IMG/VR virus record: IMGVR_UViG_2851982317_000002
Length of the DNA: 63,616 nt
Direction: 5' to 3' (one strand)
Source: a virus
Lineage: Duplodnaviria > Heunggongvirae > Uroviricota > Caudoviricetes
Of this stretch, positions 1,369-63,081 are shown in pieces. The notes below the pieces were generated by a model. It was not told where the DNA came from. It did not search any database and worked only from the letters and a program-made list of their open reading frames with translations. Within the stretch, counting starts at the first letter, position 1. The number at the start of each line of letters is the position of its first letter. The position numbers and the translations under genes were made by a program.

Positions 1369-1444
1369 GCCGATATAGCTCAGTTGGTAGAGCAGCGCAT
1401 TCGTAATGCGAAGGTCGTAGGTTCGACTCCTATTATCGGCACCA
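1369..1444 (+). tRNA. thrW: tRNA-Thr (anticodon CGU)
   Basis: 76-nt sequence GCCGATATAGCTCAGTTGGTAGAGCAGCGCATTCGTAATGCGAAGGTCGTAGGTTCGACTCCTATTATCGGCACCA with D-loop AGTTGGTAGAG, anticodon loop TTCGTAA, T-arm GGTTCGACTCC and encoded CCA end. Confidence 0.93.
1399..1444 (+). repeat. attL core: 3' 46 bp of thrW, directly repeated at 47076-47121
   Basis: Exact 46-bp direct repeat ATTCGTAATGCGAAGGTCGTAGGTTCGACTCCTATTATCGGCACCA found at both positions by eye; integrase gene lies immediately adjacent. Confidence 0.75.
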
Positions 1445-1458
1445 TTTAAATCAATAAG

Positions 1459-2622
1459 TTACACATCATTAGTACCTTCCTTATTTTTTGACTGGGACGA
1501 ATTTGGGACCGATGGGTTCAGGATCGAGTCTATTTGCCGTGCGTGTTCGGTAAGGTGATTAGGTGCAAGGTGAGCATATCGACGAACCATTTCGATAGAC
1601 TCCCAGCCTCCCATTTCCTGTAACACTGACAACGGGACTCCGGCTTGAACCAGCCAACTTGCCCAGGTGTGTCTCAAGTCGTGAAATCTGAAATCATCAA
1701 TACCAGCCCGTCTCAGCGCCGCTTTCCAGGCTGTGTTTGCGTCATACCGCATCTTCCTTACTGTTGGCGCTTTCGTTCCGTCTGGTTTGGTACAGCTTTC
1801 CTTGTACACAAATACCCAACGGTGATGATTCCCGATTTGTTTTTTCAAAACGCGACATGCAGTATCATTCAGCGCAACGCCAATTGCGCGGTTTGATTTA
1901 CTCTCTTCCGGGTTTATCCATGCCACCCGGCGCTGCATGTCTATTTGTTGCCATTCAAGGTTGATGATGTTCGAGCGTCTTAAGCCTGTTGCCAGTGCAA
2001 ATTCAACAACAGACTTTAATGGCTCCGGACATTCATCAATCAGCCTTTGTGCTTCATGGGGCTCCAGCCAGCGGATCCGTTTATTCTTTGGTTGAGGCAC
2101 TTTAATAATTGGTGCCTTATCCAGCATTTTCCATTCACGCTCTGCGGCTCTTAGTAGGGCCTTTATAAATGAAAGATGCGTAGCCTTCGTTGCAACGGAC
2201 GCTGGTTTTGGCGTGTATTCTGGAACAGGTTTCCCTTTTTTTCTGCATGCTTCTGCCCTGAGTCTCCAGTTTTCCTCATGACGCCGGTTCGTCATTTTCT
2301 GCATTGCTGAATAAATTTTTGATTCAGTAATGTCTCTTAGTTGCATTCCTGCGAAATGTTGAAGCCAGAATCCGATCCGGCTTTTGTCATCGTCCAGTGA
2401 TTTTTTATGTGCTTTCTCTTCAAGCCACCTGACACACGCTTCCTCGAACGTTATATCAGGTATTTCACCAAGTTTGCTGACCCGCCATGCTTCAGCCTTT
2501 AGCTTGTCATGGAGTTCTGTCGCCTGCCTTTTGTCCTTTGTTCCAAGAGACTGTTTAAATCTTTTACCGTTCGGCAATGTGAAACTGGCGTACCATATTT
2601 CACCTCTGCGGAAGAGTGACAT
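1459..2622 (-). CDS. int: phage integrase, tyrosine recombinase
   Basis: 387-aa ORF ending 15 bp from the tRNA; C-terminal catalytic motifs ([10 protein letters not shown] ... VRRYAHL) typical of the R-H-R-Y tyrosine recombinase family; GAGGA RBS upstream of ATG. Confidence 0.9.
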
Positions 2623-2849
2623 TTTCTTTCCTCTGTTATGCCATCACCCGCGCTCACCTGGACAGTATGCAGCGGAGACTGAAGAGCCGCAATGCAGGCT
2701 TGTCGTGTTGTGAGGTAAGGAGATTTATTCTTAGTGGGATCTTTGCGTGTTGCCTGAAGACGCCCTGTGCGTATCCAGTTAATGGCAGTCGGTCTGGATA
2801 TCTTGAGAAAATGACAGGCCTCATCGAGTGTGAGGCTGTATGGCTCCAT
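2499..2849 (-). CDS. putative excisionase / small DNA-binding protein
   Basis: ORF immediately upstream of int and overlapping its 5' end as lambda xis does; likely start at the internal ATG ([31 protein letters not shown]...) with a helix-turn-helix-like segment; start codon overlaps the stop of the upstream ORF. Confidence 0.45.
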
Positions 2850-3154
2850 TATTTCACCTCTTGCTGTGACATTGTTGAAAAATGGATACCAGCTCGTTGC
2901 TGCCAGACGATCCAACCGAGAGTCATATCCCATGCCATGTATTCGTTATCGCCGTTTTTTGCTCTCCGACGATCTACTAAGTTACCGAAACGCTTTTCCA
3001 TGAATAATTCATAAGATTCGCGTTCATCTGGTTCTACTTCCAGAGATAGGAGTGCGATTTCATAAGCACGGCGCTCAATATCGTCTCGCACGTCAAGGCT
3101 GCTGATACGCTCTTTAATTTCTTTAATCAGTTCTTTGTCGGTAAAAGTGGTCAT
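2849..3154 (-). CDS. hypothetical phage protein
   Basis: 101-aa ORF in the leftward early operon; stop overlaps the start of the xis-like ORF and start overlaps the stop of the next gene (translational coupling). Confidence 0.45.
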   Translation of the reverse strand: MTTFTDKELIKEIKERISSLDVRDDIERRAYEIALLSLEVEPDERESYELFMEKRFGNLVDRRRAKNGDNEYMAWDMTLGWIVWQQRAGIHFSTMSQQEVK

Positions 3155-4995: not shown

Positions 4996-5060
4996 AATAA
5001 GTCCTCACTATATAAAGATATTCAGTGATGAGATAAATAATCAGTTAATTAAGAACGATA

Positions 5061-8055: not shown

Positions 8056-8064
8056 AGGTCGGTC

Positions 8065-47075: not shown

Positions 47076-47121
47076 AATTCGTAATGCGAAGGTCGTAGGT
47101 TCGACTCCTATTATCGGCACC
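47076..47121 (+). repeat. attR core: 46-bp direct repeat of the thrW 3' end (tRNA fragment, not an intact tRNA)
   Basis: Identical to 1399-1444; lacks the tRNA 5' half. Confidence 0.75.
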
Positions 47122-47896: not shown

Positions 47897-47899
47897 TAT

Positions 47900-49471: not shown

Positions 49472-49490
49472 ATCCTCACTTTACAACGGG

Positions 49491-49838
49491 TTATATGCGG
49501 ATTCCAGCGCGTTCCGTTCGTTTCGGGTGCTTCCAGTTGATACCTTCAAGAAGCATGGATAACTGAGCCGGAGTAAGGTGCACCTTGCCGTCACGGGTGA
49601 CTGGCCAGACGAAGCGGCCCCGCTCCAGGCGTTTGGTGAAGAGGCACAGTCCGTCACTGTCAGCCCACAACACTTTTATCTGGTCACCCCGGCGTCCGCG
49701 GAAGATGAACAGGTGTCCGGAGAACGGGTCATCCTTCAGGACGTTCTGAACTTTTGATGCCAGGCCGTTAAAGCCATTTCGCATATCGGTGATACCTGCA
49801 ACCAGCCAGATACGCGAACCTGCAGGGAGAGATATCAT
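49491..49838 (-). CDS. tnpB: IS66 Orf2 (TnpB)
   Basis: 115 aa, MISLPAGSRIWLVAGITDMRNGFNGLA... characteristic of IS66 Orf2. Confidence 0.8.
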   Translation of the reverse strand: MISLPAGSRIWLVAGITDMRNGFNGLASKVQNVLKDDPFSGHLFIFRGRRGDQIKVLWADSDGLCLFTKRLERGRFVWPVTRDGKVHLTPAQLSMLLEGINWKHPKRTERAGIRI

Positions 49839-50515: not shown

Positions 50516-50657
50516 TATTTTTGTAGAGCCGGAGGAAACAGACCAGACGGTTTAAATGAGCCGGTTACAGTTGAAATGGCTTAAGGATTGAATCACCAGT
50601 AGGCGCATAACACATCCAGCGATCAAAGATGTGTTTATGCGCCTGATAGTGAAATTA

Positions 50658-50816
50658 TTAAAGTCGTTTAGTTAACATCGCCATTGCTTGAGCAATAATT
50701 GCAACAGCGTCCATCTCTTCACTGGAAGCGATGCAAATGCGGTAACTAATAGCCACAATGAATACATCAATAACGAGAAAGTGAATAGTGTGAAGATGTT
50801 TTGAAAGTAAATGCAT
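50658..50816 (-). CDS. hypothetical small protein (52 aa)
   Basis: ATG 5 nt after GGAGG (minus strand); translation MHLLSKHLHTIHFLVIDVFIVAISYRICIASSEEMDAVAIIAQAMAMLTKRL done by hand; followed downstream by an imperfect 15-16-bp hairpin (50610-50651); not in the supplied ORF track (below 60 aa). Confidence 0.3.
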   Translation of the reverse strand: MHLLSKHLHTIHFLVIDVFIVAISYRICIASSEEMDAVAIIAQAMAMLTKRL

Positions 50817-51210
50817 AACTTCCTCCGGTTTTGGGATAGGAGGATTAGAACATGCATTAAATGATGTTGCAAGAATGGCAATTTACCCTAATAGTCTACT
50901 ATTCACCTCAATCTACGTCAACCAATATTTGATGTAGATTTAATTTTCTTTTAAAAACAATATGTTGTTATTTGTTGAATTTTGGGGTTAGGTTGTTTTT
51001 TGAACGTTTTCATCAAGTGTAAAGATACGTTTAGCCTTCATAGTGAGTTCAGTTACTGTCTTTTTCTCTGAAATCGGCGCAAACGTGATCATCGCTTGAG
51101 GTTGCTGCTCTTACTTCTCAAATTGTGATGGAGAACGATAAAGGTTAGAGGGCACTTTTATTTTTTTAAGCAAGTGTATAGCATAAGAATAATCTAAAAA
51201 GGGAGGTTAT

Positions 51211-51762
51211 ATGCGCAGGTCTGCATTTGTGAGGATGATGATTTTTACAACGTTGTTTGTAGGGGGAACTTCTACCGCAGTTGCTAAAAACTGCAAAAAA
51301 GGAATACCTTGTGGTAACTCGTGTATAGCTGTTGGTAAGACGTGCCGGATTGGCTCTTATGCCCCTTCATCTTATAAAAATCATTCATACTCTTATCCTT
51401 CATCCTCTATTCGAAGCTCGCAATCAAATAATTCACGAAAAACTGAAGGAGTGAAAACGACTCCTGCTGCCAAAAATTATCTTTGCCAATACTCTATTGC
51501 ATCAATCGAAAACGGACGTTTAGGGGCATTACGTGTTCAGGGATACGCACAAGTAACTTTATATGCAGATAGCTTCAAGGCTAACAGATTAAATGGAACA
51601 TATTTGATATCGCCAAAACTGAATGCTAACGGCAAGTTTATGATGGCAGATGATAAAAGCAAGGTTTATGCTTATGATTCTTGGCTATTAAATTTTGCAA
51701 TAAGCGATCGTATCACAAGAACGACAGAACAATGGGATCGATGTAAGCTCAATCAAAAATAA
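51211..51762 (+). CDS. hypothetical secreted protein (signal peptide, Cys-rich N-terminus)
   Basis: 183 aa; ATG 4 nt after GGGAGG; N-terminal signal-like MRRSAFVRMMIFTTLFVGGTSTAVA then CKKGIPCGNSCIAVGKTC. Confidence 0.5.
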   Translation: MRRSAFVRMMIFTTLFVGGTSTAVAKNCKKGIPCGNSCIAVGKTCRIGSYAPSSYKNHSYSYPSSSIRSSQSNNSRKTEGVKTTPAAKNYLCQYSIASIENGRLGALRVQGYAQVTLYADSFKANRLNGTYLISPKLNANGKFMMADDKSKVYAYDSWLLNFAISDRITRTTEQWDRCKLNQK

Positions 51763-52158
51763 CAGTTAGAGAAGCTCTTGTAGAGGCATTATTGAGTTAT
51801 TGGTTTTAATATTTTTGTGCCTCTATGGGCTTTTTTTGCCTTTTTGCAAAGTAGGAGAGAGCACAGGAATCGTTAAAATTAATTATTGGGGTATTTAAGG
51901 TTATTTTCAGGTGGTTTAAGGGTATTAAACTTGATTTAATTGATTAAAATATAAACAGATAGCCCTGCATCTTATTGATTTATAAGGTTATTTTTAAATT
52001 AAGGTAAATAAAAAATAAATAGCCATAAATAGCTATAAATACATCTAAATACCTTTATCCCTTCCCTTATGGCTAGATTGCGAGAAGTGCTTAACGCGAT
52101 TTTCACCGCCCCCTGATCTGGAAAATCCAGAATCCCCAAATATCAGCAAGGAATTTTC

Positions 52159-52452
52159 TTGCGTAATCAACATCGTTTTTACCTATTAAATCATTACACA
52201 GAAAGCCTTTCTGTAATGTCTCTCACTAAACTTTCACTAAACACGAGAATGATCGGTTTTATGTCGGATCAGATGCTAGAAACAGCACCACGTCTCACAA
52301 GGGCTGTAAGCGATGAAACCAGTGTTTATGCGGGTGCAGGTCAAAATATGGGCCAAAATCCATTTAACATAATAATCGTAATATGCACTAAGGAACACAT
52401 AGAACGCCTTGAGTTGATGTATCAGGGGAAAAGTGGTGGATTTTTTACGTAG
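52159..52452 (+). CDS. hypothetical protein
   Basis: 97-aa ORF in an AT-rich region; no RBS or motif support. Confidence 0.2.
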   Translation: MRNQHRFYLLNHYTESLSVMSLTKLSLNTRMIGFMSDQMLETAPRLTRAVSDETSVYAGAGQNMGQNPFNIIIVICTKEHIERLELMYQGKSGGFFT

Positions 52453-52916
52453 GAGCACGAGAGGGCTTCTATTGACTTTTGTATGCTATGAAATATAATA
52501 GAAGGTTTTTTATTTTTATGTTGATAGTGATTGCACATTAAAGATTGAAAGCAAATTTAAACATAAATTTTCAACACGTGAAAGAAACTTGTTCGACAAA
52601 TAATAGATTGATTTTTAATCAACAATTTCTGATAGTGCGCTGTAGCCGCATTACACAAGGCTTTGCGAAAGTGATGTAAAAGTGAAGAAAGTAAGAATTG
52701 CACTTTTAAGCTACTTTTCATTGAATTTTTACGTAGGAATTACACAGGGATTAATCATCAATTACATTGAATTTAAGCCTGTTTTAGATGTTTAATTTTG
52801 GTAGCAAGAAACACTTTTAGAAGATCATTGCACAGATGTTATGTGATAAATGGATGTAACGGTAGGTCACTGTGAGCTACCCCTATCAAGTCTGATACCC
52901 GATAAGTATAAATAAC

Positions 52917-53019
52917 ACCTGGGAAATGAGTTCCGATCTATTTAGGAAATAACCGTGGAAGTGGTTTCCTACCTACCTAGGAAATGAGTTCCTATCACCT
53001 AGGAAATGATTTCCGACAA
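52917..53019. repeat. array of four palindromic (T)AGGAAAT(G/A)A...TTTCC motifs followed by a very AT-rich stretch
   Basis: Motifs at about 52921, 52944, 52979 and 53000 (GGGAAATGAGTTCC, AGGAAATAACC...GGTTTCCT, AGGAAATGAGTTCC, AGGAAATGATTTCC), then AT-rich 53020-53090. Confidence 0.5.
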
Positions 53020-54122
53020 TACTATAATTAAACTACAATTAAACTATATAATATAATTCTTTTTTATCTTTATAAGAATAATTATAGGGATACCCGTTAG
53101 GGAGTCTAACGACTATCCCTTAATCTATTGGCATTCGCCAGAACCTTGCACAAGTTAGAGTGTTAGTCGTTAGACTGCTTGTCATAACACATAGTTTTTG
53201 TTTGTTGATGTTAGTTAGTAGATCTATGTTCGCTAATGCCGCTCACAACGAATATGTAATCTACTATGTGCAAATAGCCTACGGCTTGCGTAAGGCTAAA
53301 TAGTCTTGCGCTGTGCGCAGAACGATAATTAACTAACTACCATCTAACGATTGAAATTTACTTGTGCAATAACCTGAGCGTAAGCGAATGGTTGTTAGTG
53401 TCTATGCGCTGTGCGCTTCAATAGTTCCATTGATGAGGCTTACGCCAATCTAACGATCATCAATCTATTTAAGAGAAAATCTATTGTGCAATACTCTGAC
53501 GAGTGCAATAACCTTGTGTGCTACGCGTTAGCGATGTTAGCACATAGACACAGACAACAACCAACAACAAACAAAAAAGAATGGTTTTAGTAGTTGAAGG
53601 TTAAATAAGTTTCTACCGCTTAAATCAAGCCGTAGGCGAGCTAAACGTATATAAGGCAGGGAAACCTTAGCGGTAATAGATTAGCTCATTATAGAGCTTC
53701 TGAGGAGCTTTACAGGTATTTTATAAGGTGTCTGAAATTAGAGTTTATCTATCATCTCCTTTTCATATACCTAACAAATACAAAATAAGCCCCTTAAATA
53801 AACCTCTGGCGAGCTAAACTGTCATTACATAAGGGAATGTATTGTTTTTATCAAAACCTCGTTAGAACGCGTTTTAGAGAATAAGGAAGAATAGCATCAC
53901 ACAGAAGAGCACGAATTGCTAAGCAAAATCATAACATACTGAAAAATGATCAATATTTTATGGGTGGGGGTTGACAAAAGCCTTTAGTTATGGTAAAGTA
54001 ATATTAGGGACAGGAAAACATTCCTATCCTCTAAATAATTAAACCAATGCACCGCACTTTGAAGCCCAAGAGGCTTGCAAGGTGTCTTTTTCTTTTAACC
54101 AAATAGAATAGGAGGTTAATTA

Positions 54123-54299
54123 GTGAAGTATTTCACTTCTCAAGATGTAGTTGAAGCCTGGAAACGTGGTGAGATCAACCGCTTTAGGGTAAGAATGAAT
54201 AGGAACACAGCGCGACGCTGTGGTTATCCAGAGCGTGAAAAATGTTTTGACGATGCACTAAAAATTATTGATGAACTGCGTAAAGCAGAGAAAGAATAA
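54123..54299 (+). CDS. hypothetical small protein (58 aa)
   Basis: GTG start 7 nt after AGGAGG; hand translation MKYFTSQDVVEAWKRGEINRFRVRMNRNTARRCGYPEREKCFDDALKIIDELRKAEKE; not in the ORF track (below 60 aa). Confidence 0.35.
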   Translation: MKYFTSQDVVEAWKRGEINRFRVRMNRNTARRCGYPEREKCFDDALKIIDELRKAEKE

Positions 54300-54322
54300 T
54301 AACAGGAGAAGGAGAAAACCAA

Positions 54323-54511
54323 ATGAATATTAATTTTGATTCTGCAACTTATAACGCGTTGTTAAATCGTGCAAAGGCAGAAGGGAAATCAATTCCAAAA
54401 CTTGTTAATGAATTACTAATTACAGTCCTTACAAAGGAGGAACTAAATGATCAAAAATATCAAAACAATTGCCGAAGCGAAAGCCAAATGTCTAAATCAG
54501 AAAGATGGTAA
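54323..54511 (+). CDS. hypothetical small protein, possible ribbon-helix-helix regulator
   Basis: 62 aa; AGGAGAAGGAGA RBS; N-terminal YNALLNRAKAEGKSIPKLVNELL resembles an RHH/CopG-like fold; overlaps the next gene by 65 nt. Confidence 0.4.
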   Translation: MNINFDSATYNALLNRAKAEGKSIPKLVNELLITVLTKEELNDQKYQNNCRSESQMSKSERW

Positions 54512-55115
54512 ACAAAAATATGTAGTCGTTGAGCAGTGGTTGAAGATGTTTAAAAAGTGGTTCTCACCGTCAGGTAATGAATACACCGCTACACTGCCAG
54601 CCGTTGAAATCTATAGCTATATAGCTGGATTCAATGAACAAGGGCAAGAATGTTACGCCACTCAAAAAACATTATCTAATATTGGAATGGTTAGTGATCG
54701 CCAGGTTCGCAATATTATAAATATGTTTGTTGATATGGGAGTTCTTTCTGTAGAGGCTCGGGACGGGCAAACATCACTCTATAAAGCATTACCATTCACA
54801 GATGCACATATTACTCCCCCTGGAGAGTCATCACTACCTGATCCTTCTGAGAAAGAAGACGAATCTAATGAAATATTGAATGTTTCAGAAATCATCATTG
54901 AAGAAGAAACACAGGAATCAGAGTTCCCTGAGCGGCCCGAAATTTTTACTTGGCTTCTTTCCCTTGATAAGAAGAAACCACCGCACGAAGAAACAGAAGA
55001 TTTTGTAAAACGAGCATTAGATTCAAAGAATATCTATCTTTGTGAAAATGATTTTGACTCTTTGATAATTGATCTCAAAAGTGAGAGCACAATATATGAT
55101 TCACTACCCTTTTAA
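54447..55115 (+). CDS. hypothetical protein with HTH-like segment
   Basis: 222 aa; strong RBS AAGGAGG 6 nt upstream; HTH-like TQKTLSNIGMVSDRQVRNIINMFVDMGVL; acidic C-terminal half. Confidence 0.5.
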   Translation: MIKNIKTIAEAKAKCLNQKDGKQKYVVVEQWLKMFKKWFSPSGNEYTATLPAVEIYSYIAGFNEQGQECYATQKTLSNIGMVSDRQVRNIINMFVDMGVLSVEARDGQTSLYKALPFTDAHITPPGESSLPDPSEKEDESNEILNVSEIIIEEETQESEFPERPEIFTWLLSLDKKKPPHEETEDFVKRALDSKNIYLCENDFDSLIIDLKSESTIYDSLPF

Positions 55116-55381
55116 GGAGAATAAATGGCTTATAACATCACTATAGGAAACAAAACTATTGAAATAACTGAGAGCGGATACCACATTTTAAAAGCTATTT
55201 TGGAAATAGAGTTCTCACCGCCGACAGTGGTTAGCTTTTAGGGTTTAGCTCCTATCATCATTTTTTGGGATTTAACGCTTTCAATAATTGTGTAGGTGGT
55301 GCATCGGAAGTCGATCTGATGGCTCATTTAGAAGATACATTAGCTTCTAACAAACGTTCTAACTAATAAAATGATGGGTGT

Positions 55382-55627
55382 ATGTATAAGCGCCCAATGA
55401 AAATATTCGAAAAAGGAAAAATAATGATTGGCTATATTCAAGAAACACAATTATTTCAGATGATCCTGTCTGATGCAAAAAACTATGCTGAGTTAATCCG
55501 ACTGGCAAAAGAAACAGAAGACTACGAAGCATTAGAGCGTTATCGTGATGAAGTGCTGACGCTCAAGACACCTTTTAACATCGTATTGAATATGATTAAT
55601 GATGCATTACAAGGAGAAGCCGCATAA
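55382..55627 (+). CDS. hypothetical protein
   Basis: 81-aa ORF; start ambiguous (ATG 55382, 55397 or 55424; the last has the best RBS). Confidence 0.35.
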   Translation: MYKRPMKIFEKGKIMIGYIQETQLFQMILSDAKNYAELIRLAKETEDYEALERYRDEVLTLKTPFNIVLNMINDALQGEAA

Positions 55628-55935
55628 TGGAAGAAGATATTAGCAATGCAATGGAACAACTTTTAGATCTGACTATCTCACTACAAACAAGAATAAATCA
55701 AGCCTATTCAGATTTATGCGATTACACGCTCTCTCAATGCGTTATTAGCTTAATGAAGGTGAATGTAAGCCTTGACGATTTTATCTCTCTGGTGAGCGAT
55801 TTAGAGCTAATTGAGGACGATGCCAAGATGTGCACTCAAACCATCACAGACACCGCCAGCACGTTAAAGGCTGCAAGTGAAGAGATTCAGCAATTAGTAG
55901 ACGATTTAGCAAAAAGTGCTATTTTCTCTAAATGA
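55627..55935 (+). CDS. hypothetical protein
   Basis: 102 aa; AGGAGA RBS; TAATG overlap with the upstream ORF. Confidence 0.4.
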   Translation: MEEDISNAMEQLLDLTISLQTRINQAYSDLCDYTLSQCVISLMKVNVSLDDFISLVSDLELIEDDAKMCTQTITDTASTLKAASEEIQQLVDDLAKSAIFSK

Positions 55936-56919
55936 TAATGAAAATAATTTGCATTTATAACGATTTCATTATATAATGATATTAGGGGTAGATAAAAAGG
56001 TTTTGACTGGTGTTAATCCTTCTACTGTCATAAATCCCTGCATATGGAAGGTGATAGCCTCAAAGGTTGAGTGGCATTAACCTCTAACAAATATTACCTT
56101 CCATCTCTCAAGAAGTTTTAGAATAATCATAACTCCCTCTTTGATTGTTGATTGTTTCTACGTTGTGTTGATGAATGTTGTTAGGCATTGTGCTTAATTT
56201 TGATAAAAGCGGGTAGGTGTTATCTCCTTGCCCTTCCCGCTCTTATTTTTCATCTATGCTTATCCTAAAGCTCCTTATTTTGTCAGAAAATATTAAAGAG
56301 CCTTACACTGATAGTTATATTTTATAACTATTTACTAACATCATTAAACTATTATTTAATGACAGAAGTTAGTAACAGAATAATCTATTAAGTTGTTGTC
56401 AAAAACAATCATCTGCATAGCGTTAGCCGCAAGCAGAGAGAGTTTAGCTAAGAATGGTGCAATAAACTTTGGAAATATTGATAGCAAAACGGGTTTTATA
56501 GAATGCGGATCTATAAGCTTTGGTTGTAAAAACGATTTTCTGAAACGGTAGATTACTGTTGGTGTAGTTAATCATTATTAAAAATTTAATCTGTGAGTAG
56601 ATTGGAATAGTGATTCCTTAAAATCTGACTGGTGCATCCACACCATGAAAGATAGCGGTTGGCCACCGCGCCCCGAATAGATATTCCTGATTGATTCCGC
56701 ATGTTTTCCTAAGAGCATGTTTTCAGGAGTATCTATTCACCCTTTAAGCATATCATCAAGTATATTTAAAAAGTGTATTTGCTGATATGTTTAATCCTCT
56801 TATAGTTTAACTTATCAATTATGTAATTGCCCGCACGTTAAAGCCCCTTTGCTGGTCAGAATTAACCTCTTACGGCATTGGGGCTTTTTATTTGTCTGGC
56901 ACTAACAGGAACGTTATTT

Positions 56920-57117
56920 ATGAAACAAGAAATGATTATCAGCAAAGACGGGGAAACGATGATTGTTAGTGATGAAAACCTCATTAAGGTTGCCGCACTG
57001 TTGGGAGTTACTCCCGAAAGTCTTCGTTCTACCACTGCTCAATTATTTAAATCGGCTGATGCGGTTAGTCTTGCTGATGCCCTTAAATCTAAAATTAAAC
57101 AACTGAAAGGAAAATAA
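56920..57117 (+). CDS. hypothetical small protein
   Basis: 65 aa from the ATG at 56920 (track TTG at 56878 lies inside an upstream hairpin); first gene of a six-gene same-strand cluster. Confidence 0.4.
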   Translation: MKQEMIISKDGETMIVSDENLIKVAALLGVTPESLRSTTAQLFKSADAVSLADALKSKIKQLKGK

Positions 57118-57121
57118 TCTT

Positions 57122-57505
57122 ATGGCTAACCCATATGGAAAATTAAAAGTAGTGAATGCGGATAACTCCCGTTCACGCTGTAAGGTAGTAGCTTACGCTG
57201 CTGATCCAGTGCTGCAAGATCGCCTCGTCAAACTGGCTTCACCTCTCACTGACGATCTTATTGTCGGGGCTTTGCTGAAAGCCGATGGCACCAAAGCAAC
57301 AACCGCATCTGATATTGCTCACGTAGTAGTTGAACCGGCTTATGAAGGACAGGAAAGCGTAGTGGTTGCACATCCTACTTTCGTTATTCTGGCTGAAGAT
57401 GGGATTGAATTTAACAGCATGGAAAAGGCAAGTGTTATTGCAAAACTGCAATCTCTCGGCTTTGTAATTGCTGGTTATGAAGAACTTGCGATCCCTACGA
57501 CTTAA
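57122..57505 (+). CDS. hypothetical protein
   Basis: 127 aa; AAGGAAAA RBS; 4-nt spacing from the upstream gene. Confidence 0.5.
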   Translation: MANPYGKLKVVNADNSRSRCKVVAYAADPVLQDRLVKLASPLTDDLIVGALLKADGTKATTASDIAHVVVEPAYEGQESVVVAHPTFVILAEDGIEFNSMEKASVIAKLQSLGFVIAGYEELAIPTT

Positions 57506-57519
57506 CAAGGAAAATAATA

Positions 57520-58551
57520 ATGAATGATTTATCAACATATTTTGGCGTTAATACTGCGGTAGTAACTCCTTTTGCTTATGAGAATGCACTTAATACCCTG
57601 ATTACTAATCTCGATCTGTTCGATGTGCAATATCATACAGAAAACAGCATTCTTCTTACCGACCTGATTGATCAGTTTGTGCAGGTAGCTGGGGAAACCT
57701 CGCCTTACGCTCAAAGCGACTGGAACGCCTCTAAACGTCAGGAATGGTCAAACAAACTTTTCCAGATGAAACACGTCGGCAGTATTAACGCTGTTACTTC
57801 TCGTGACCTGGAACAATACAGCCGCCAATATCCAAACCGTTCTGATGCTATGCTGGTAGCGGTTAATGATTTCTCTGAGGCTCATTACCGTTCACACGCA
57901 AACCGTGTTGAAGTGGATCTGATTACCGCGCTGCTGGGCCTGAAAGTTGAATCTGAATATGCCGGACAAGGTGATCTCGACTTCCTCGACGGTCAGGCTA
58001 AAACCACGGTACCCGCTATCGACTTTGCATCGACAACTGTTAACCCGTTCCTTGCTATTCGTAAAGCGGTGCGCTTACAGAGTGAAAAGCTGGGGTCTGG
58101 TCTTGCTGCAAAGCGAACTGGTGTAATTATCTTTGCTGCTGGCGCTGCTGCTGATGGTTTGTCATCTAACCCGCTGATCAGTGACATGGTGAAATATGCA
58201 GGCGATGCGAGTGCTACGGCCCTGTTTACCCGTATGGTTGATTCTAACCCAGCCTATGACTCTTTCCAGATTGGTGGGATCACTGTTATTGATGTGTCAA
58301 TGTTTCCTGAGATTGTTGCTCACATCGGAGAGAACGGTTTCGCAATTGTTCCGGTAATGGATAAAGCGGCACAGTGTTACCAGCTTCATAGCGGCGTTGG
58401 TGTGCGTCATGCTGAGTTAGGTCAAGATGCCGTGTTGCATCACCAATATCTAATCAAGGATGAATTCCAATTCCCATCTGTGGTTACTGAGACATCTTAT
58501 CTGCCAGTAAACAACATTCCGCAAGCTATCATCTTCGGATCTGCTGCGTAA
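57520..58551 (+). CDS. hypothetical protein (possible phage structural protein)
   Basis: 343 aa; AAGGAAAA RBS; no catalytic motif; position ahead of a small ORF and a tape-measure-like gene suggests a major tail or capsid-type protein, but this is inference only. Confidence 0.5.
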   Translation: MNDLSTYFGVNTAVVTPFAYENALNTLITNLDLFDVQYHTENSILLTDLIDQFVQVAGETSPYAQSDWNASKRQEWSNKLFQMKHVGSINAVTSRDLEQYSRQYPNRSDAMLVAVNDFSEAHYRSHANRVEVDLITALLGLKVESEYAGQGDLDFLDGQAKTTVPAIDFASTTVNPFLAIRKAVRLQSEKLGSGLAAKRTGVIIFAAGAAADGLSSNPLISDMVKYAGDASATALFTRMVDSNPAYDSFQIGGITVIDVSMFPEIVAHIGENGFAIVPVMDKAAQCYQLHSGVGVRHAELGQDAVLHHQYLIKDEFQFPSVVTETSYLPVNNIPQAIIFGSAA

Positions 58552-58702
58552 TAAAGCGTTAATAGACGATTCCCCATCGGGGCAATAAGGGTAAAGGGAT
58601 TAACTAACCTGTAGGCGCAAATACAGTAACGAATCTCTTTGCCCTTTTTGTTTTTCTACTGTCTACAAACCCAAATAAAAATATATATGTGAGAGAAAAC
58701 CA

Positions 58703-58900
58703 ATGAATACAGAAAACCCACAATCCTTTATTCTTAAGGCTGTAAAAGAACTGGCAGCTATTAGCGATGACTCAATAATCAATGTCAGTGCCTTATGCAG
58801 AATGCTTTCAATTGATGCAAATAATGTGCGGCAGCGTGTGTTTCAGACTGGGTGCAGCACTTTTGAGGCAATCCAATATTATTGCTCTAAAAAACAATAA
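58703..58900 (+). CDS. hypothetical small protein
   Basis: 65-aa ORF between the 343-aa and 633-aa genes. Confidence 0.35.
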   Translation: MNTENPQSFILKAVKELAAISDDSIINVSALCRMLSIDANNVRQRVFQTGCSTFEAIQYYCSKKQ

Positions 58901-58934
58901 CAAACAATAATCATAATACAGGGAAACAATTAAC

Positions 58935-60836
58935 ATGTTAGAAATTACCGCCTCACGAATTAGTAATGTTGTGACATTTACCACTGATTTCAAGAGCTTA
59001 CAGAAAGCTAAGAATGAAGTGGATAAGCTACAAAAGAAGATGCAGGGGATCAAACCTGTGCAAGTGGCGGCAGCACGTCAGAAAGATTTACAGAGGCTGG
59101 GAAAAGAGATTCAGCGCCAGCATGATCAGCATGTTAAGCGGGCTGTTAAATCTGAGACACAGGCATCTAAAGCCAGCACTAAACAGAAGCTACAGGAAGC
59201 TAAAAACCTCGCTAAAGCACAGGCTAAACAAGCCTCAATTGCTGAAAAGGCAGAGATCAAGCGCCTTGCATCATATCGCCAGTTACAAGGCATCAAGAAC
59301 AATTCCCGCTATGGCGAAGGGATGGATATTAAGAAATATCACGATGCTCTACGTTACATTAAGGAACAAACCCGCCTCTATGAATCCGGCGCTATATCGC
59401 AAGCGAAGATGAATGCCCTGATCCGTGACCGCATCACATTAGAAAGACGAGCCGCAGCCGCTGCTACGCGTCGTAATGCTGCCGCTGGGGGTGTATATCC
59501 AGTTACTTCTAAGAAGCTCCACAAAGAAGGTGTTAGCGGCGGTGGCGCGTTAATGATGGGCGGTGTTGGTGGCATTATCGGCGGCGCTGCCGTTGGCTTA
59601 GGAAGTATGGCTGTATCTGCTGGAATGGAAAAAGCCCGTGAACGTATGGAATTGCAGAAGATGAGCGATCTGGTAGGCGCAGACTCCAACCAGGTGGCTG
59701 CAATGGTTAATTGGGGGAGGGCAAACGGTGTATCAAGTGCAAGCGTGGACAAGACCACTGACAATATCAAAGACTTAAACGAACGCATTGGTCATCAAAG
59801 CCGAACTGCTGAATGGGATAGTAAGAAAAAAGAGTGGCGAGGCGGGGAAGGATCATTAAATGATATTCAGAATGCCTTTGCATGGAACAAAGATAAGATA
59901 GCTTCCTACCAGGGGCGACCGCTGCAACTCCTGCAAGACGTGGTGAGAGAAGGTGAACGCCGAGGAATGACTAAAGAAGCCATCATATCCCTGATCGAAC
60001 CATTAGCAGACGATGCCAGCCATTATCTCAAGATGTTTTCCCGTGATGGGGAAGAGTTCCGTAAAACGATGGTTGATATGGAAAACAACGGGCAGCTACT
60101 GACAGAAGCACAGAAAGAGCAATATCGCGCAGCTAACAAGACAGCTACAGCCTTTGACCGTCTGACAGATGGACTATCGAATCAGGCTATTTTGGGCTTC
60201 TTTGATGGCATAGCCAACATGCCAGCACTCAAACCGGAAGAAAGCAAAGCCTTACAGAATGCAGCTTATGGTGTTGGTGCATCGTTCGGGGATTTGGCTA
60301 AACAAGGCGCTGTATTACTGACCTCTATGACTTCTTACGGGAATCAAATCACAAGCTGGATTAATAAACATCTTAGCCGTGGTGAGAATGATAACCGACC
60401 TGAGACACAAAAGGTTATGGACGCTGTTACAGATGGGGAATGGTCGCCATCAACGATTATCAATGAAGGTATTCGTTATGCAACTGGACTCGATACGAAA
60501 GATGTAGGGCGTATTGTGCGCGGTGAGGAAACACAGTCCGGCGTTCCAGGGTGGTGGACTGATTTAATTAATGGCAATGCTAACAGCTACGGATCAACCC
60601 TTGTTGCACGTAAAGCAGAAGCCTATCAGCCGACTGTAAGCCTACAACGTCAATACGCAACTCCTGTTAACGTGAATGCACAGGTTACGGTGCCGAGTGA
60701 TATGATCTCTGTTAACGTCATCCCTAACGGTCCCGGCTTTCAGGATTTAATCCGCACTGAGATCAGAGCGAACAACAATCAGTTTAGTTCGAATCTGATT
60801 CTTAGCACGTTGTCAGGACAGAGTAGCGTTAACTAA
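58935..60836 (+). CDS. tape-measure-like protein (coiled-coil N-terminus + Gly-rich hydrophobic segment)
   Basis: 633 aa; N-terminal Lys/Gln/Ala-rich coiled-coil-like region, then GGGALMMGGVGGIIGGAAVGLGSMAVSAG; overall composition reminiscent of small tape-measure or pilot proteins. Confidence 0.5.
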   Translation: MLEITASRISNVVTFTTDFKSLQKAKNEVDKLQKKMQGIKPVQVAAARQKDLQRLGKEIQRQHDQHVKRAVKSETQASKASTKQKLQEAKNLAKAQAKQASIAEKAEIKRLASYRQLQGIKNNSRYGEGMDIKKYHDALRYIKEQTRLYESGAISQAKMNALIRDRITLERRAAAAATRRNAAAGGVYPVTSKKLHKEGVSGGGALMMGGVGGIIGGAAVGLGSMAVSAGMEKARERMELQKMSDLVGADSNQVAAMVNWGRANGVSSASVDKTTDNIKDLNERIGHQSRTAEWDSKKKEWRGGEGSLNDIQNAFAWNKDKIASYQGRPLQLLQDVVREGERRGMTKEAIISLIEPLADDASHYLKMFSRDGEEFRKTMVDMENNGQLLTEAQKEQYRAANKTATAFDRLTDGLSNQAILGFFDGIANMPALKPEESKALQNAAYGVGASFGDLAKQGAVLLTSMTSYGNQITSWINKHLSRGENDNRPETQKVMDAVTDGEWSPSTIINEGIRYATGLDTKDVGRIVRGEETQSGVPGWWTDLINGNANSYGSTLVARKAEAYQPTVSLQRQYATPVNVNAQVTVPSDMISVNVIPNGPGFQDLIRTEIRANNNQFSSNLILSTLSGQSSVN

Positions 60837-60909
60837 GTTTAACGATAACTAATAATAAAGCGGGGGCAATATTTATTGCTTTCCGCTCATTACACAAGGA
60901 TTAATATAA

Positions 60910-61566
60910 ATGGTTATCAAAGAAAGTCAGATCAACAGCACATCTAACATTAATACATCTAACAGCAAGGTTAAATCTGATAACGGATTTGCCATTATAT
61001 GTAGCAACCTGAATAACGAAAATGCATCAACGATAGCCAGTTATAAAGCTATTACTTTTGACGCTGTTCCGGCAACTAAGGTTTCACGTTCTGCCGATGT
61101 TACATCGTATCCTGTGCAGGATGGTAATGATGTATCTGATAATGTCAGGATCAAGAATAATAAACTTATGCTTTCAGGCATTATTACAGAAACACCATTA
61201 GCATTACGTGGTGATATGCTATCAAGTGCAGGGGTGAACGGTAACAGGTGTTCACAGGCTATTACTTATCTTGATGAAATAATGAATGCCAGACAGCCTA
61301 TTATTGTAAGCACAGAGCATAAGACGTTTGATAATATGATTCTGACAGGCATTGACTACGAATATAAAACAGAATCAGCTTTACAGTTTGATTTGCAGTT
61401 CGAACAGATAAGATTAGTGAGTTATGCAACTACTAACGCTATTGCTGTAAAGACCGCATCACCTAAGAGCACAGGCGGACAGGTAAAAAGCCGAGTGCCA
61501 ACCAATGCAGGAACAGCCAGCACCACTAAAGACACCCTTCCGACGTATGACGGAGAAGTGAAATAA
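60910..61566 (+). CDS. hypothetical protein
   Basis: 218-aa ORF, last gene of the cluster before the integrase. Confidence 0.45.
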   Translation: MVIKESQINSTSNINTSNSKVKSDNGFAIICSNLNNENASTIASYKAITFDAVPATKVSRSADVTSYPVQDGNDVSDNVRIKNNKLMLSGIITETPLALRGDMLSSAGVNGNRCSQAITYLDEIMNARQPIIVSTEHKTFDNMILTGIDYEYKTESALQFDLQFEQIRLVSYATTNAIAVKTASPKSTGGQVKSRVPTNAGTASTTKDTLPTYDGEVK

Positions 61567-61640
61567 TCCCTATAAAGAACGATGTAGCGAGATAATCATA
61601 AAAGAGGCTACCAATCTATGTTGAAGCCTCTTTATTGCGT

Positions 61641-62918
61641 CTATGGCGTTGTTTTACGCCTTAAATTTGATTTTTTATTGATTGATAAGCCTTTCTCTAT
61701 TTCAGGGTAGCGTAAAAGCTCAATATATTTTTTAAGCTCTACTGGAGAAGCTGCATTCTTGCTATATGTGCGGAATGTTTCTGTATTGCCGCGCTGATGG
61801 CCCAACATTAAAGCTATGCGGTCCTCTGGAATTTGATTTCGATCAAGAAGCTGTGCTACTCCGTGTCTCAGAGAATGAAACACTTTCCTTTCTGTTACCT
61901 TTTCCCCTAAAGCCTTTCGTTTAGCTCTTGTAAATCGTTGTGTATGCCACGTAGAGCGTTTACCGTCAGCACGCTCTGTAATGCTGGCGTGATAGAACAA
62001 AAAGCCATTGTGAGGCTTTTCACGAAGAGATAACACCAATGGAGTGATAAGGCTATGCACAGGCACAAGACGTGCCGCAGCTTTCGTTTTTCCCTGTGTG
62101 ATTTCAAAACACAGCACACCTTCGATCTCTTTCACATCGTCTATTGTGAGACTTGCTATCTCATTGATCCGCATCCCTGTATATAAACCGATAAGACATA
62201 AAGCCGTCATTTCTTTGTTTTCTGCTGAATTACCGGAAAATACTTGCAACACCTGCAATAGCTCTTTGTTAGAAAATGCCTCGTAGCTCTCTCTACTTTG
62301 TGCCACATCAAGCCTATGCCCTCGCCAGGGGGAGAGCGCCCTTTCTGGCGCATCGTGGTAACGTGATGAAGCTAATTCCCATAGCTGGGCCATTGGGCTG
62401 ATATAATTTGCAATTGATTGTTGTGAAAGAGTTTTTTGCATGTGTTCAATCCAGCCTGTAACAGTGGTGCGGCTTACATCTTGCAATGCAATATCAGGCT
62501 TTTTACGGTAGGAGAGAAACATCTCTACCGCTTTTCTTGCCTTAGCTAAAGTGGCTGGCTTCTTCTTCGTGCTGTTAATTGTCAGGTAGATTTCAAGAAT
62601 TTTAAGCAATGACGGACACGAAGACGCTGTATCTTGCATTCTGGTAGCTGTTTTGGCGTATTTAGCCTTACTGCGTAACAGTTCCAGCGTGTTTTCTATT
62701 GTGCTGTTTACAGGGGCAACACTCTCCCGTAAGCAATGGTATTCATCTGCAATCTGATCACGCTTTCTACGTGCAACACGAAGATTACTTGTGTGCAGAC
62801 TTCTAACAAACGTCCTTTTTCCTTCAAAAAAGGGCTGCATATACACAGGCAACGTGATCCTCAAATAGTAGTTACCGTAAGAATTACAGATTAAGTATTG
62901 GTTAGGCTTGTATCTCAT
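61641..62918 (-). CDS. int: tyrosine recombinase / integrase
   Basis: Catalytic motifs FHSLRHGVAQ and LGHQRGN...Y; preferred start is the ATG at 62918 with GGAGA RBS (track TTG at 63005 has none); adjacent to the degenerate tRNA fragment. Confidence 0.82.
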   Translation of the reverse strand: MRYKPNQYLICNSYGNYYLRITLPVYMQPFFEGKRTFVRSLHTSNLRVARRKRDQIADEYHCLRESVAPVNSTIENTLELLRSKAKYAKTATRMQDTASSCPSLLKILEIYLTINSTKKKPATLAKARKAVEMFLSYRKKPDIALQDVSRTTVTGWIEHMQKTLSQQSIANYISPMAQLWELASSRYHDAPERALSPWRGHRLDVAQSRESYEAFSNKELLQVLQVFSGNSAENKEMTALCLIGLYTGMRINEIASLTIDDVKEIEGVLCFEITQGKTKAAARLVPVHSLITPLVLSLREKPHNGFLFYHASITERADGKRSTWHTQRFTRAKRKALGEKVTERKVFHSLRHGVAQLLDRNQIPEDRIALMLGHQRGNTETFRTYSKNAASPVELKKYIELLRYPEIEKGLSINKKSNLRRKTTP

Positions 62919-63009
62919 AAAATCTCCGGCTAAAGTGTCGGAGCGTTTGTAATGTGAAAATTGATTGTGACGCATAGAAAATGATGATTTTTCTATAAGA
63001 TTCAATCAA

Positions 63010-63081
63010 TTAGTAATGGTCGTAGGTGATGGCATTAACACGAGATTAATCGAGTGTTTTACTCCTATTATCGGCACCATT
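63010..63081 (+). repeat. degenerate thrW 3' fragment (pseudo-tRNA / right att remnant of element 2)
   Basis: 63061-63081 ACTCCTATTATCGGCACCATT is identical to the thrW 3' end; upstream ATTAGTAATGGTCGTAGGT resembles ATTCGTAATGCGAAGGTCGTAGGT, separated by about 30 unrelated bp. Confidence 0.6.

Follow-up and report, generated by a model that had tools for sequence, protein, structure and literature searches.

The thrW locus and its repeats

The 63,616-nucleotide stretch analyzed here (the window) covers the thrW locus of Escherichia coli E2528-C1, where a lambda-like prophage (element 1) is followed by a phage-related integrative island (element 2; Table 1). The tRNA-Thr gene at one end had been described as intact in the initial annotation, and both ARAGORN and Rfam bear this out; direct repeats of its 3' part lie at each element boundary. 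The longest exact repeat, shared by the first and middle copies, is 48 bp and consists of the last 46 nucleotides of the tRNA followed by TT; it begins at nucleotide 31, immediately ahead of the anticodon loop, and includes the terminal CCA. The exact 46-bp copy reported initially at 47076-47121 is real, but its coordinates were one base off, the tRNA bases being 47077-47122. The 3' part of thrW from nucleotide 31 onwards is supplied by element 1.

The third copy starts at tRNA nucleotide 58, within the T loop. It is identical to the first copy over 21 bp (1426-1446 and 63061-63081) and to the second over 23 bp (47104-47126 and 63061-63083), so that the end of the middle copy (47104-47126; 21-23 bp) doubles as attL of element 2. 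Chance alone would not be expected to give a 21-mer match in 2 x 63.6 kb, and the last 12 nucleotides of the tRNA have no further copy anywhere in the window. Each segment has its own integrase matching Phage_integrase or integrase families, placed as originally noted: that of element 1 beside the tRNA, and that of element 2 at the distal end beside the third copy.

Table 1. Features of the thrW locus in the window
Feature	Position	Strand	Evidence or remark
proA 3' part, left chromosomal flank	1-1254	+	RefSeq annotation of NZ_CP035870.1 (E. coli E2528-C1)
thrW, intact tRNA-Thr(CGT)	1369-1444	+	ARAGORN; Rfam tRNA 71.8 bits; cloverleaf parsed
attL of element 1, 48-bp identity block	1399-1446	+	Exact repeat of 47077-47124
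Element 1, 45.6-kb lambda-like prophage	1447-47076		RefSeq annotation; joined ends match SfIV attP
Element 1 integrase, 387 aa, P22/Sf-phage type	1459-2622	-	Adjoins tRNA
Element 1 excisionase-like HTH protein	2499-2933	-	Pfam HTH_17, E = 3e-8
Avs2 anti-phage gene, cargo at right end of element 1	42239-46693	+	PADLOC Avs2, 1750 bits
P arm of element 1 attP, ~260 bp	46816-47076	+	Common to all prophages with the same integrase module
attR of element 1	47077-47124	+	Exact repeat; junctions seen in other genomes
Element 2, phage-related integrative island	47125-63060		15.9 kb; 13.2 kb without IS
IS66-family (ISCro1-like) insertion	47870-50568	-	RefSeq annotation
Element 2 putative control and replication region	52917-55115	+	Predicted function
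Element 2 HTH protein, 222 aa	54447-55115	+	Pfam HTH_36, E = 5e-5
127-aa protein, head-decoration by gene position only	57122-57505	+	Kept in family
Element 2 major capsid protein, HK97 fold	57520-58551	+	Pfam, Foldseek, hhalign
Element 2 tape-measure homologue, 633 aa	58935-60836	+	PDB Phi92_gp134, E = 6.7e-49
Element 2 tail tube initiator (Dit-like), 218 aa	60910-61566	+	Pfam Dit_like, E = 5.6e-28
Element 2 integrase, 425 aa from ATG	61641-62918	-	Pfam Phage_integrase, DUF6538 (N-terminal), Phage_int_SAM_5
P arm of element 2 attP	62919-63060	+	Includes tRNA-like 'degenerate' stretch 63010-63060
attR of element 2, 21-bp core	63061-63081	+	tRNA nucleotide 58 to CCA, plus TT
LysR-family pseudogene, right chromosomal flank	63206-63544	-	RefSeq annotation; paoD comes next

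Element 1 is a lambda-like prophage with a P22/Sf integration module

Element 1 looks complete. In the RefSeq annotation it contains int, xis, repressor/cro, replication genes, Q, lysis genes, terminase, portal, a protease-capsid fusion, tail genes through J, Lom and a tail fibre, together with the Avs2 gene, which RefSeq labels 'AVAST type 2'. The integrase is 99.5% identical over 387 aa to that of Shigella phage SfIV and 89.7% identical to that of the Salmonella P22-like phage SPN9CC, and the excisionase-like reading frame overlaps the start of int, the position of the annotated SfIV excisionase. The attP of element 1 was rebuilt by joining the sequence left of copy 2, the core and the sequence right of copy 1; it matches the contiguous attP-int region of the isolated phage SfIV at 98.7% over 627 bp, the P arm being contiguous with the int side in that phage. 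Matches to the P arm in other genomes begin at window positions 46812-46816. Element 1 therefore has the attributes of the P22/Sf integration module, namely a close integrase and an attP in which the 46-nucleotide 3' part of thrW lies between phage arms. Sf phages are known to integrate at thrW (PMC3306764).

Element 2 represents an undescribed family of islands

Element 2 has a G+C content of 39.9%, as against 49.5% for element 1, and the two have no protein or DNA similarity in common beyond a weak local match between the integrases (26% over 89 residues). It belongs to an undescribed family with capsid, tape-measure and tube-initiator genes, whose compact gene order is kept in E. coli and Klebsiella. 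The copy in O157:H16 98-3133 is 99.8-99.9% identical to that of the window outside a mosaic middle part. The IS insertion is bounded by an 8-bp target duplication (AGTTGAAA, at 47862-47869 and 50569-50576) and is absent from an otherwise identical copy of element 2 in L005.

The ten main reading frames of element 2 (at least 79 aa) were scanned with Pfam, PHROG and NCBIfam, and several of the smaller ones with Pfam or NCBIfam. The putative control and replication region contains three 22-nucleotide iteron-like repeats found by repeat search (52917-53018), small reading frames, and the HTH protein, which is weakly similar to PHROG replication-initiator families (E = 4e-6). The capsid assignment is based on three comparisons: Pfam Phage_cap_E is matched by 11 of 15 family members; at E <= 0.001, every one of the 30 Foldseek matches of the capsid model in the PDB is to a shell protein of the HK97 fold (phage capsids and a few encapsulins), although the mean pLDDT of the model is only 54.7; and hhalign aligns the protein over its full length with the major head protein of phage phAPEC8 (E = 4e-5), indicating distant homology to the phi92/phAPEC8 head protein. 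The tape measure is 32% identical over 450 aa to that of phAPEC8 and matches PHROG 16051 (E = 3.6e-72), and the tube initiator matches Phi92_gp135 in the PDB (E = 3.3e-69). The similarity of the 127-aa protein to Phi92_gp123 and to the phAPEC8 decoration protein is non-significant. Profile scans of the element 2 reading frames recognized neither an excisionase nor genes for terminase, portal, sheath, tube or lysis.

The two elements occur independently at thrW

Empty, single-element and tandem configurations are all found at the thrW loci of other genomes. Searches with synthetic junctions at a coverage of at least 80% in 5426 complete E. coli genomes found the empty junction between thrW and the flank in 948 genomes, element 2 alone in 400 (thrW|E2 junction) and an element-1-type prophage alone in 341 (attR|flank junction). 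The tandem order seen here occurs in 18-19 genomes, and the reverse order in three, with three further partial matches; one reverse case was checked by annotation. The breakpoints coincide with the repeats in every configuration; the middle-copy junction, for instance, is met as thrW|E2, E1|flank and E1|E2. The proA flank is kept beside thrW in all configurations, and the LysR-family pseudogene adjoins thrW directly in empty-site genomes. The two segments are thus present or absent separately, and the unoccupied site exists.

Individual strains illustrate this independence. At thrW of strain 26561 there is only a cut-down, degraded element 1, which has the same Avs2, and strains 98232 and O157:H16 98-3133 have element 2 alone. 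In TB06052, the prophage ahead of element 2 is not element 1 but a myovirus that shares its P arm, and a third element comes after element 2; similarity to the window stops exactly at 63081. In the reverse array of GENOMIC23-002, the annotation shows a degraded element-1-type prophage in the distal position and an intact element 2 proximal to the tRNA.

These comparisons establish where each element begins and ends, that the two are independent, and which att systems they use. They also bear on a bare possibility raised in the initial annotation, that the window holds a single composite 61-kb island in which 47077-47124 is internal and the third copy is a chance match or decayed remnant. This is refuted by the junction counts, by the occurrence of the halves in both orders and by the SfIV attP match: in related genomes the middle repeat marks an element boundary, either half can be found by itself in hundreds of genomes that diverge at the repeats, the attP of an actual phage is restored by joining the ends of element 1, and the halves differ in sequence and in G+C content as described above. 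We give a composite island next to no chance. The initial reading, a two-element tandem array at thrW with three copies of the tRNA 3' end, is strongly supported by the att, junction and distribution data alike, including the comparison with related genomes that could have refuted it.

Probable integration at two parts of thrW

The window very probably contains two unrelated elements head to tail, each inserted by its own tyrosine integrase at a different part of thrW. The attP of element 1 belongs to a P22/SfIV-type module and includes the tRNA sequence that begins shortly ahead of the anticodon loop and runs through the 3' end; because it carries 46 tRNA nucleotides plus TT, a 48-bp repeat is present at both ends of the element. 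The attP of element 2 has only ~21 bp in common with thrW, beginning in the T loop and ending with CCA and TT, and an overlap of this size explains why element 2 is bounded by a 21-23-bp repeat nested in the larger one. The middle copy combines attR of element 1 with attL of element 2. Taking the starts of the identity blocks as a guide, the crossovers probably fell in the anticodon-loop region for element 1 and in the T-loop/3' end for element 2. Both elements may still be able to excise; for element 2, present-day mobility is indicated solely by its distribution, since no excised circle or attP junction was found in IMG/VR, JGI metagenome contigs or the 5426 E. coli genomes.

The third copy was initially taken to extend over 63010-63081 in degenerate form. 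Its 21 identical base pairs stand, but the similarity of 63010-63060 to the tRNA is weak: 9/10 matches (ATTAGTAATG), then 10/10 (GGTCGTAGGT), then ~33 unrelated bases. In local alignment this stretch scores 20, a value that 30 of 5000 shuffles reached as well, and 22 is scored by unrelated 60-bp windows in the same sequence. All element-2 copies examined, which lie in five different right-hand contexts, agree completely in the 60-75 bp to the left of the core; the core itself is the junction in each of these copies, whatever sequence lies beyond, and similarity to other genomes stops exactly at 63061-63081. The interrupted tRNA-like stretch is part of element 2's own att arm. Since it is base-for-base the same across strains and array positions, it does not reflect decay in E2528-C1, and the short core is the family's normal att site, since relatives at tRNA-Gly(CCC) (glyU), which also have the integrase at the distal end, likewise have terminal repeats of only 21-22 bp.

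Order of arrival

The degenerate att had also been read as a sign that element 2 is the older resident. That argument fails for the reasons just given, while the order itself stays plausible. Both orders yield the same product, which makes the structure uninformative on the order of arrival; given the IS insertion and a precedent from experiment, it is likelier that element 2 came first and element 1 later entered the thrW regenerated by it, and we lean towards this sequence of events. The window has an apparently complete element 1 beside an IS-bearing element 2, and in the laboratory phage SfI inserted into attL of the resident SfX at thrW (PMC3306764). The only reverse array inspected, with its intact tRNA-proximal element, also fits a newcomer next to the tRNA.

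A lambda-like prophage that was resident first, with element 2 later inserted into its attR, is less probable, yet deserves serious consideration. The prophage attR holds the full 21-bp core needed by element 2, and the final structure would be the same. Use of a resident attR as target is documented for Sp10, which lies beside Rac (PMC2669165); by themselves, element-1-type prophages and element 2 occur about equally often (341 and 400 genomes), and the related Avs2-bearing element 1 of strain 26561 is alone and already degraded. Set against this are the apparent completeness of element 1 here, the IS in element 2, the reverse array and the SfI insertion at attL.

Alternatively, the array may have been assembled in another lineage and have reached E2528-C1 whole, by transduction or conjugation followed by homologous recombination in the conserved proA and pao flanks. 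Many strains have nearly the same flanking sequence, which would provide ample homology; array ends are conserved while interiors vary, and one and the same P arm is attached to a lambda-like prophage in the window and to a myovirus in TB06052, showing that recombination reshuffles the locus. However, an Avs2 prophage, the IS and element 2 are combined exactly in this way in no other of the 5426 complete E. coli genomes, so that a donor is not seen, and import would only move the assembly to another strain rather than replace site-specific integration. We consider it improbable.

Relation to known arrays and satellites

The tandem array is in itself ordinary, since arrays at thrW are already documented. 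Tandem SfI/SfX prophages occupy thrW in Shigella flexneri (PMC3306764); they resemble the present array in site, in the integrase family of element 1, in the att copy at each junction and in the newcomer beside the tRNA. Both of those partners, however, have the same integrase type and the same 46-bp core, whereas here the partner integrase is unrelated and its core shorter and nested. The Sp1/Sp2 compound prophage region of E. coli O157:H7 Sakai (PMC8190617, PMC2669165) likewise places two elements, small or defective and phage-related, on one E. coli thrW. By its description Sp2 is P4-like, unlike element 2.

CP4-6 of K-12 is similar to element 2 in its thrW site, in its distal, inward-reading integrase beside a copy of the tRNA 3' end and in its right-hand chromosomal junction, which is the same as here. 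The thrW pseudo-copy at its distal end, known as ptwF, is a perfect 48-bp block as against 21 bp at element 2, and the gene content is unrelated. Element 2 is not of the CP4-6 family: megablast similarity to K-12 starts at 63061 (core and flank), and its integrase resembles K-12 IntF only locally (24% identity over 153 residues).

More interesting than the array is a by-product of its analysis, an undescribed island family with virion genes in common with large virulent phages. Like known satellites (cf-PICI, P4-like, PICI, PLE and PICMI), which are 10-15-kb integrase-bearing islands with few virion genes, element 2 is without genes for independent phage life, and its phage relatives are virulent, as are those of PLE and PICMI. 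The cf-PICI are defined by eleven core components, which include the integrase, AlpA, primase, small and large terminases, portal, protease, capsid and head-tail adaptor/connector, and in SatelliteFinder tail genes count as forbidden components of both PICI and cf-PICI (PMC10085698). Element 2 does not fit: of this core only the integrase and capsid were found, AlpA, primase, terminases, portal, protease, adaptor and connector being unmatched in Pfam, PHROG and NCBIfam, and a tape measure and tube initiator are present. A P4-like assignment was also rejected, as Psu, Delta, Sid, AlpA, epsilon and alpha were unmatched in the same databases.

The closest virion relatives are phi92 and phAPEC8 (Stephanstirmvirinae), three of whose virion proteins are homologous to element 2 proteins and encoded in the same order. 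These phages are 145-155 kb, virulent and non-integrating, whereas element 2 is 13 kb, integrates and is without phi92/phAPEC8-type portal, terminase, sheath, tube and baseplate genes. Because its tube initiator is 60-64% identical to theirs (62-63% for phAPEC8 and phi92 themselves), element 2 may be a satellite of phi92/phAPEC8-type myoviruses. The same protein is 60-80% identical to proteins in 132 phage records and, among the matches listed, all are phi92/phAPEC8-type myoviruses.

Two elements at one tRNA gene

The window is the reverse complement of positions 2179525-2243140 of the Escherichia coli E2528-C1 chromosome (NZ_CP035870.1). On the left it opens with the end of proA and with thrW, continues with a lambda-like prophage of 45.6 kb (element 1) and a phage-related island of 15.9 kb bearing an insertion sequence (element 2), and closes with a LysR-family pseudogene and paoD. 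A single tRNA gene, the tRNA-Thr(CGT) of thrW, was found in the window by both ARAGORN and Rfam. The longest exact repeat of its 3' part is the 48 bp common to copies 1 and 2; the repeat noted in the initial annotation is thus real, although its second interval was placed one base off. Copy 3 is identical to copy 1 over 21 bp (63061-63081) and to copy 2 over 23 bp (63061-63083), and no further copy of the tRNA 3' end, down to its last 12 nucleotides, occurs in the window.

Features of the thrW locus and of related loci
Feature	Sequence	Position	Strand	Remarks
tRNA-Thr(CGT), thrW	window	1369-1444		
Copy 1 of tRNA 3' end	window	1399-1446		48 bp, identical to copy 2
Element 1	window	1447-47076		lambda-like prophage
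Element 1 integrase	window	1459-2622	minus	P22/SfIV-type
ATP-dependent nuclease	window	13247-14698	minus	483 aa
IS009 (RF02111)	window	41460-41658		222.7 bits, full-length match
Avs2 (AVAST type 2)	window	42239-46693		1484 aa
Copy 2 of tRNA 3' end	window	47077-47124		attR of element 1 and attL of element 2
Element 2	window	47125-63060		phage-related island
Small conserved ORF	window	47732-47896		about 50 aa
IS66-family insertion	window	47870-50568		8-bp duplication AGTTGAAA
AT-rich stretches	window	51800-54100; 55940-56870		
22-nt direct repeats	window	52917-53018		three repeats, ACCTRGGAAATGAKTTCC...
Virion-gene block	window	57122-61566		capsid, tape measure, tube initiator
Element 2 integrase	window	61641-62918	minus	Phage_integrase, SAM-like and DUF6538 domains
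Copy 3 of tRNA 3' end	window	63061-63081		21-bp core
glyU relative, Klebsiella	L007	1756-14519		DUF6538 integrase at distal end
glyU relative, E. coli	L010	1055-15391		DUF6538 integrase at distal end

Synthetic junctions were searched in 5426 complete E. coli genomes and counted where at least 80% of the junction was found in one place. The right flank directly follows thrW (empty site) in 948 genomes, the left end of element 2 follows thrW in 400, and an element-1-type attR adjoins the right flank in 341. The order of the window, with an element-1-type attR joined to element 2, occurs in 18-19 genomes, and the reverse order, in which the arm and core of element 2 are joined to an element-1-type left end, in three genomes and partially in three more. 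Annotated examples confirm each of these configurations. In strain TB06052 a myovirus with the same att arm lies upstream of element 2 and a third element lies downstream, and similarity to the window stops exactly at 63081. With each element occurring alone, an empty site and both orders represented, our analysis supports, with high confidence, the tandem array of two elements at thrW that had been proposed; comparison with the thrW loci of other genomes, on which that proposal had been staked, favours an array in which the repeat is not internal.

Other thrW arrays in E. coli (L006 of strain TB06052, L012 of strain GENOMIC23-002, and L013-L022) are made up of at least three elements, whose order varies. 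In them, element 2 adjoins four or more other types of att arm, some with short cores, and genes for ABC-three-component defence and for conjugative transfer lie at the end of one of these arrays.

The thrW gene is a textbook integration hotspot. It is listed among the most used tRNA integration sites of E. coli (PMC7545054), is shared by Sp1 and Sp2 in O157 Sakai (PMC8190617) and has received tandem Sf phages in the laboratory (PMC3306764). Since stacked elements at thrW are already documented both experimentally and genomically, the array is a further, ordinary instance of a familiar arrangement. What deserves pursuit is the question of what element 2 is.

Element 1 and its attachment sites

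The integrase of element 1 is 99.5% identical to that of Shigella phage SfIV over all 387 residues and 89.7% identical to the integrase of a P22-like Salmonella phage. To reconstruct its attP, the left-hand flank of copy 2 was fused through a single core to the right-hand flank of copy 1; the product is 98.7% identical over 627 bp to the contiguous attP-int region of the SfIV virion genome. This match of the joined ends to the attP of SfIV proves directly that a single phage has copy 1 as its attL and copy 2 as its attR. The identity block begins at nucleotide 31 of the tRNA, one base ahead of the anticodon loop, and Williams is said to have described in 2002 a block starting there as the pattern of integrases with crossover in the anticodon loop; from these two points, a putative crossover of element 1 is placed in that loop.

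With int, xis, repressor, replication, Q, lysis, terminase, portal, capsid, tail, J, Lom and tail fibre genes all annotated, element 1 looks complete. The anti-phage gene Avs2 is carried as cargo between the tail-fibre assembly gene and attR, and a heavily deleted relative of element 1 in strain 26561 still keeps it. In addition, the prophage encodes an ATP-dependent nuclease, with the gene for the Q antiterminator on one side and those for the methyltransferase and lysis on the other. In PADLOC this protein scores best against HEC-04, a candidate defence family (E = 4e-47), and less well against ATPases of the OLD family and of the AriA and GajA-like types. A complete-looking prophage that may still be inducible thus carries two anti-phage genes, Avs2 and the OLD-family nuclease candidate. 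The IS009 match falls within the tail-fibre assembly gene.

The attachment arm of element 2

The integrase gene of element 2 occupies the distal end of the element, points inward and immediately precedes copy 3; the similarity of its product to the integrase of element 1 and to K-12 IntF is only weak and local. Upstream of copy 3, the part described as recognisable but interrupted tRNA sequence consists of a 9/10 block and a 10/10 block, then about 33 unrelated bases. Its score is reached in 30 of 5000 shuffles, and unrelated windows of the same sequence score higher. The similarity of this stretch is weak, and its significance comes from comparative data and not from the alignment.

Copies of element 2 were compared from strains 98232, O157:H16 98-3133, TB06052 and GENOMIC23-002 and from ten IMG/VR loci. 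In every copy examined, the 60-75 bp left of the 21-bp core are identical base for base, whereas the right-hand side of the core differs: some copies adjoin either of two alleles of the chromosomal flank, some the left end of an element-1-type prophage, and others one of three or more further elements. Since the stretch is invariant while the sequence to the right of the core varies, it is part of the att arm of element 2 and is not a product of decay here. The layout recurs in two related sub-families, of Klebsiella and of E. coli, that occupy tRNA-Gly(CCC) and end in 21-22-bp repeats of the tRNA 3' end. A short core beginning in the T loop (nucleotide 58 here) is the normal att site of the family. 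The ends of element 2 are present in 531 of the 5426 E. coli genomes; an attP junction of the excised or circular element was found neither in these genomes nor in IMG/VR or the JGI metagenome contigs.

The locus is a clean example of two integrase systems acting on nested parts of one tRNA gene, which extend to the 3' end from the anticodon loop for element 1 and from the T loop for element 2. Such nested use explains the alternating lengths of att copies in arrays of this kind. A short or 'degenerate' att copy must not be taken as a sign of old age, a practical point for setting prophage boundaries and orders of acquisition.

The K-12 element CP4-6 resembles element 2 in its distal-integrase layout, but differs in having a perfect 48-bp copy and an unrelated integrase. 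An ancestral att block, longer than the present one, may survive in the arm of element 2 as two decayed copies that overlap. In K-12, the arm just upstream of the perfect CP4-6 thrW copy (L004 2960-3001) has the 9-mer GCATTAACA in common with the 33-bp 'interruption' of the element 2 arm (63025-63060).

Order of arrival

Both orders of insertion yield an identical structure. Had element 2 arrived first, it would have regenerated thrW for element 1 to enter; had element 1 arrived first, its attR, which holds the 21-bp core, would have been the target of element 2. The initial annotation regarded element 2 as the older resident on the grounds of its degenerate att site and its IS insertion. The first argument is wrong, as the arm is identical in every copy of element 2 examined and the glyU relatives also have short cores; the conclusion itself may still be right. 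The IS66-family insertion is absent from a 99.8-99.9% identical copy of element 2 in another strain, and its presence in element 2, set against the complete-looking element 1, favours arrival of element 2 first. The reverse array of strain GENOMIC23-002, in which the tRNA-proximal element is intact and the distal one degraded, also favours this order, as does, by analogy, the experimentally shown insertion of SfI into attL of resident SfX at thrW (PMC3306764). Certainty is tempered by two observations in line with the opposite order, in which element 2 entered the attR of a resident element 1: Sp10 took the attR of Rac as its target (PMC2669165), and an Avs2-bearing relative of element 1 stands alone, and already degraded, in strain 26561. 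Against these, the IS, the reverse array and the SfI precedent all speak for element 2, and we regard its arrival before element 1 as somewhat the likelier course.

The IS interrupts the 3' end of the small conserved ORF at the left end of element 2, whereas copies without the IS have the whole ORF (L005 16656-16808). At the left junction of element 2, the base two positions after CCA (47126) is T in the window and in some arrays, and C in the examined genomes in which thrW directly adjoins element 2 (compared at L005 16048, L012 2946 and other junctions). As a crossover footprint dating the insertions this base was rejected: both alleles occur behind the same upstream element (C in L014 and L017, T in L020), so the base is polymorphic and says nothing about order. 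Should the crossover region extend this far, the polymorphism may stem from the resolution of a heteroduplex.

Gene content of element 2

Without the IS, element 2 is 13.2 kb long, with a G+C content of 39.9% compared with 49.5% in element 1. It encodes small regulators, an HTH protein, a 127-aa protein, a capsid protein, a 65-aa protein, a 633-aa protein, a Dit-like protein and the integrase. Genes for a terminase, portal, sheath, tube, baseplate or lysis were not recognised in the element, PADLOC detected no defence gene among the five proteins scanned, and Rfam detected no RNA family.

Three observations identify the capsid protein. The Pfam family Phage_cap_E is matched by 11 of 15 family members; the full-length profile matches the major head protein of phAPEC8 (E = 4e-5); and every Foldseek match at E <= 0.001 is to a shell protein with the HK97 fold, mostly from phage capsids and in a few cases an encapsulin, although the predicted structure is of low confidence (mean pLDDT 54.7) and serves only to back the sequence evidence. 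A tblastn search with this protein gave no match in 50,697 phage records. Nine of its ten IMG/VR matches are on contigs named in the style of isolate genomes, probably predicted prophage regions, and none carries evidence of packaging.

The tail proteins point to the same phages. The 633-aa protein matches the solved Phi92_gp134 (E = 6.7e-49) and is 32% identical to the phAPEC8 tape measure, and the Dit-like protein matches Phi92_gp135 (E = 3.3e-69). The latter has matches at 60-80% identity in 132 phage records; those listed are all virulent myoviruses of 130-155 kb from the phi92/phAPEC8 group, and some annotate the protein as tail tube initiator. The identity of this tube initiator to phi92/phAPEC8-type phages is 60-64%. 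Capsid, tape-measure and tube-initiator genes follow one another as in phi92/phAPEC8, with the neck, sheath and tube block missing. No tie was established between the 127-aa protein and the phAPEC8 decoration protein, or between the 65-aa protein and the small gene upstream of the phAPEC8 tape measure; the comparison covered phAPEC8 outside 50-61.7 kb and 90.8-147.7 kb, and homologues of other element 2 genes may lie in these two parts. The compact gene order is common to the E. coli and Klebsiella relatives at 42-56% capsid identity, which argues for a minimal gene set under selection and not for random decay. The Klebsiella relative (L007) is without the Dit-like gene.

A possible satellite family

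It is possible, though we would not wager on it, that element 2 and its thrW and glyU relatives in E. coli, Klebsiella and other Enterobacteriaceae form an undescribed family of satellites or 'hitchers', with large virulent myoviruses of the phi92/phAPEC8 type as helpers. The island would keep only its own capsid protein, tape measure and tail tube initiator, and would either make particles that fit its 13 kb, with tail and packaging machinery borrowed from the phage, or poison phage assembly as a defence. Element 1 was rejected as the helper; tblastn (E <= 0.01) showed no similarity between the proteins of the two elements, and their DNA matches do not exceed 15 bp.

If the satellite reading is true, element 2 would be to enterobacteria what PLE is to ICP1 hosts, while differing in gene set from every satellite family described. 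Judged by their defining genes, it falls outside cf-PICI, PICI and P4-like satellites. Nothing relevant was found in the literature, of which coverage was incomplete and which does not prove novelty, that ties phi92/phAPEC8 phages to satellites or describes the island, and likewise nothing on thrW with a satellite or on DUF6538. Phages of the phi92/phAPEC8 type are used in therapy and biocontrol collections, and, if element 2 is their satellite, an element that can ride on these phages or interfere with them would be present in roughly a tenth of E. coli genomes.

The HTH protein is weakly replication-initiator-like and adjoins the three 22-nt repeats in the ORF-poor middle of element 2. The repeats may be iterons or operator sites. 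A similar repeated motif is present in the glyU-inserted E. coli relative (L010 4601-4646). The long AT-rich stretches of element 2 contain no ORF of at least 100 aa and no Rfam match, and it is in the first of them that copies which are elsewhere nearly identical diverge (mosaic region 52884-55234 in comparison with the IS-free copy L005).
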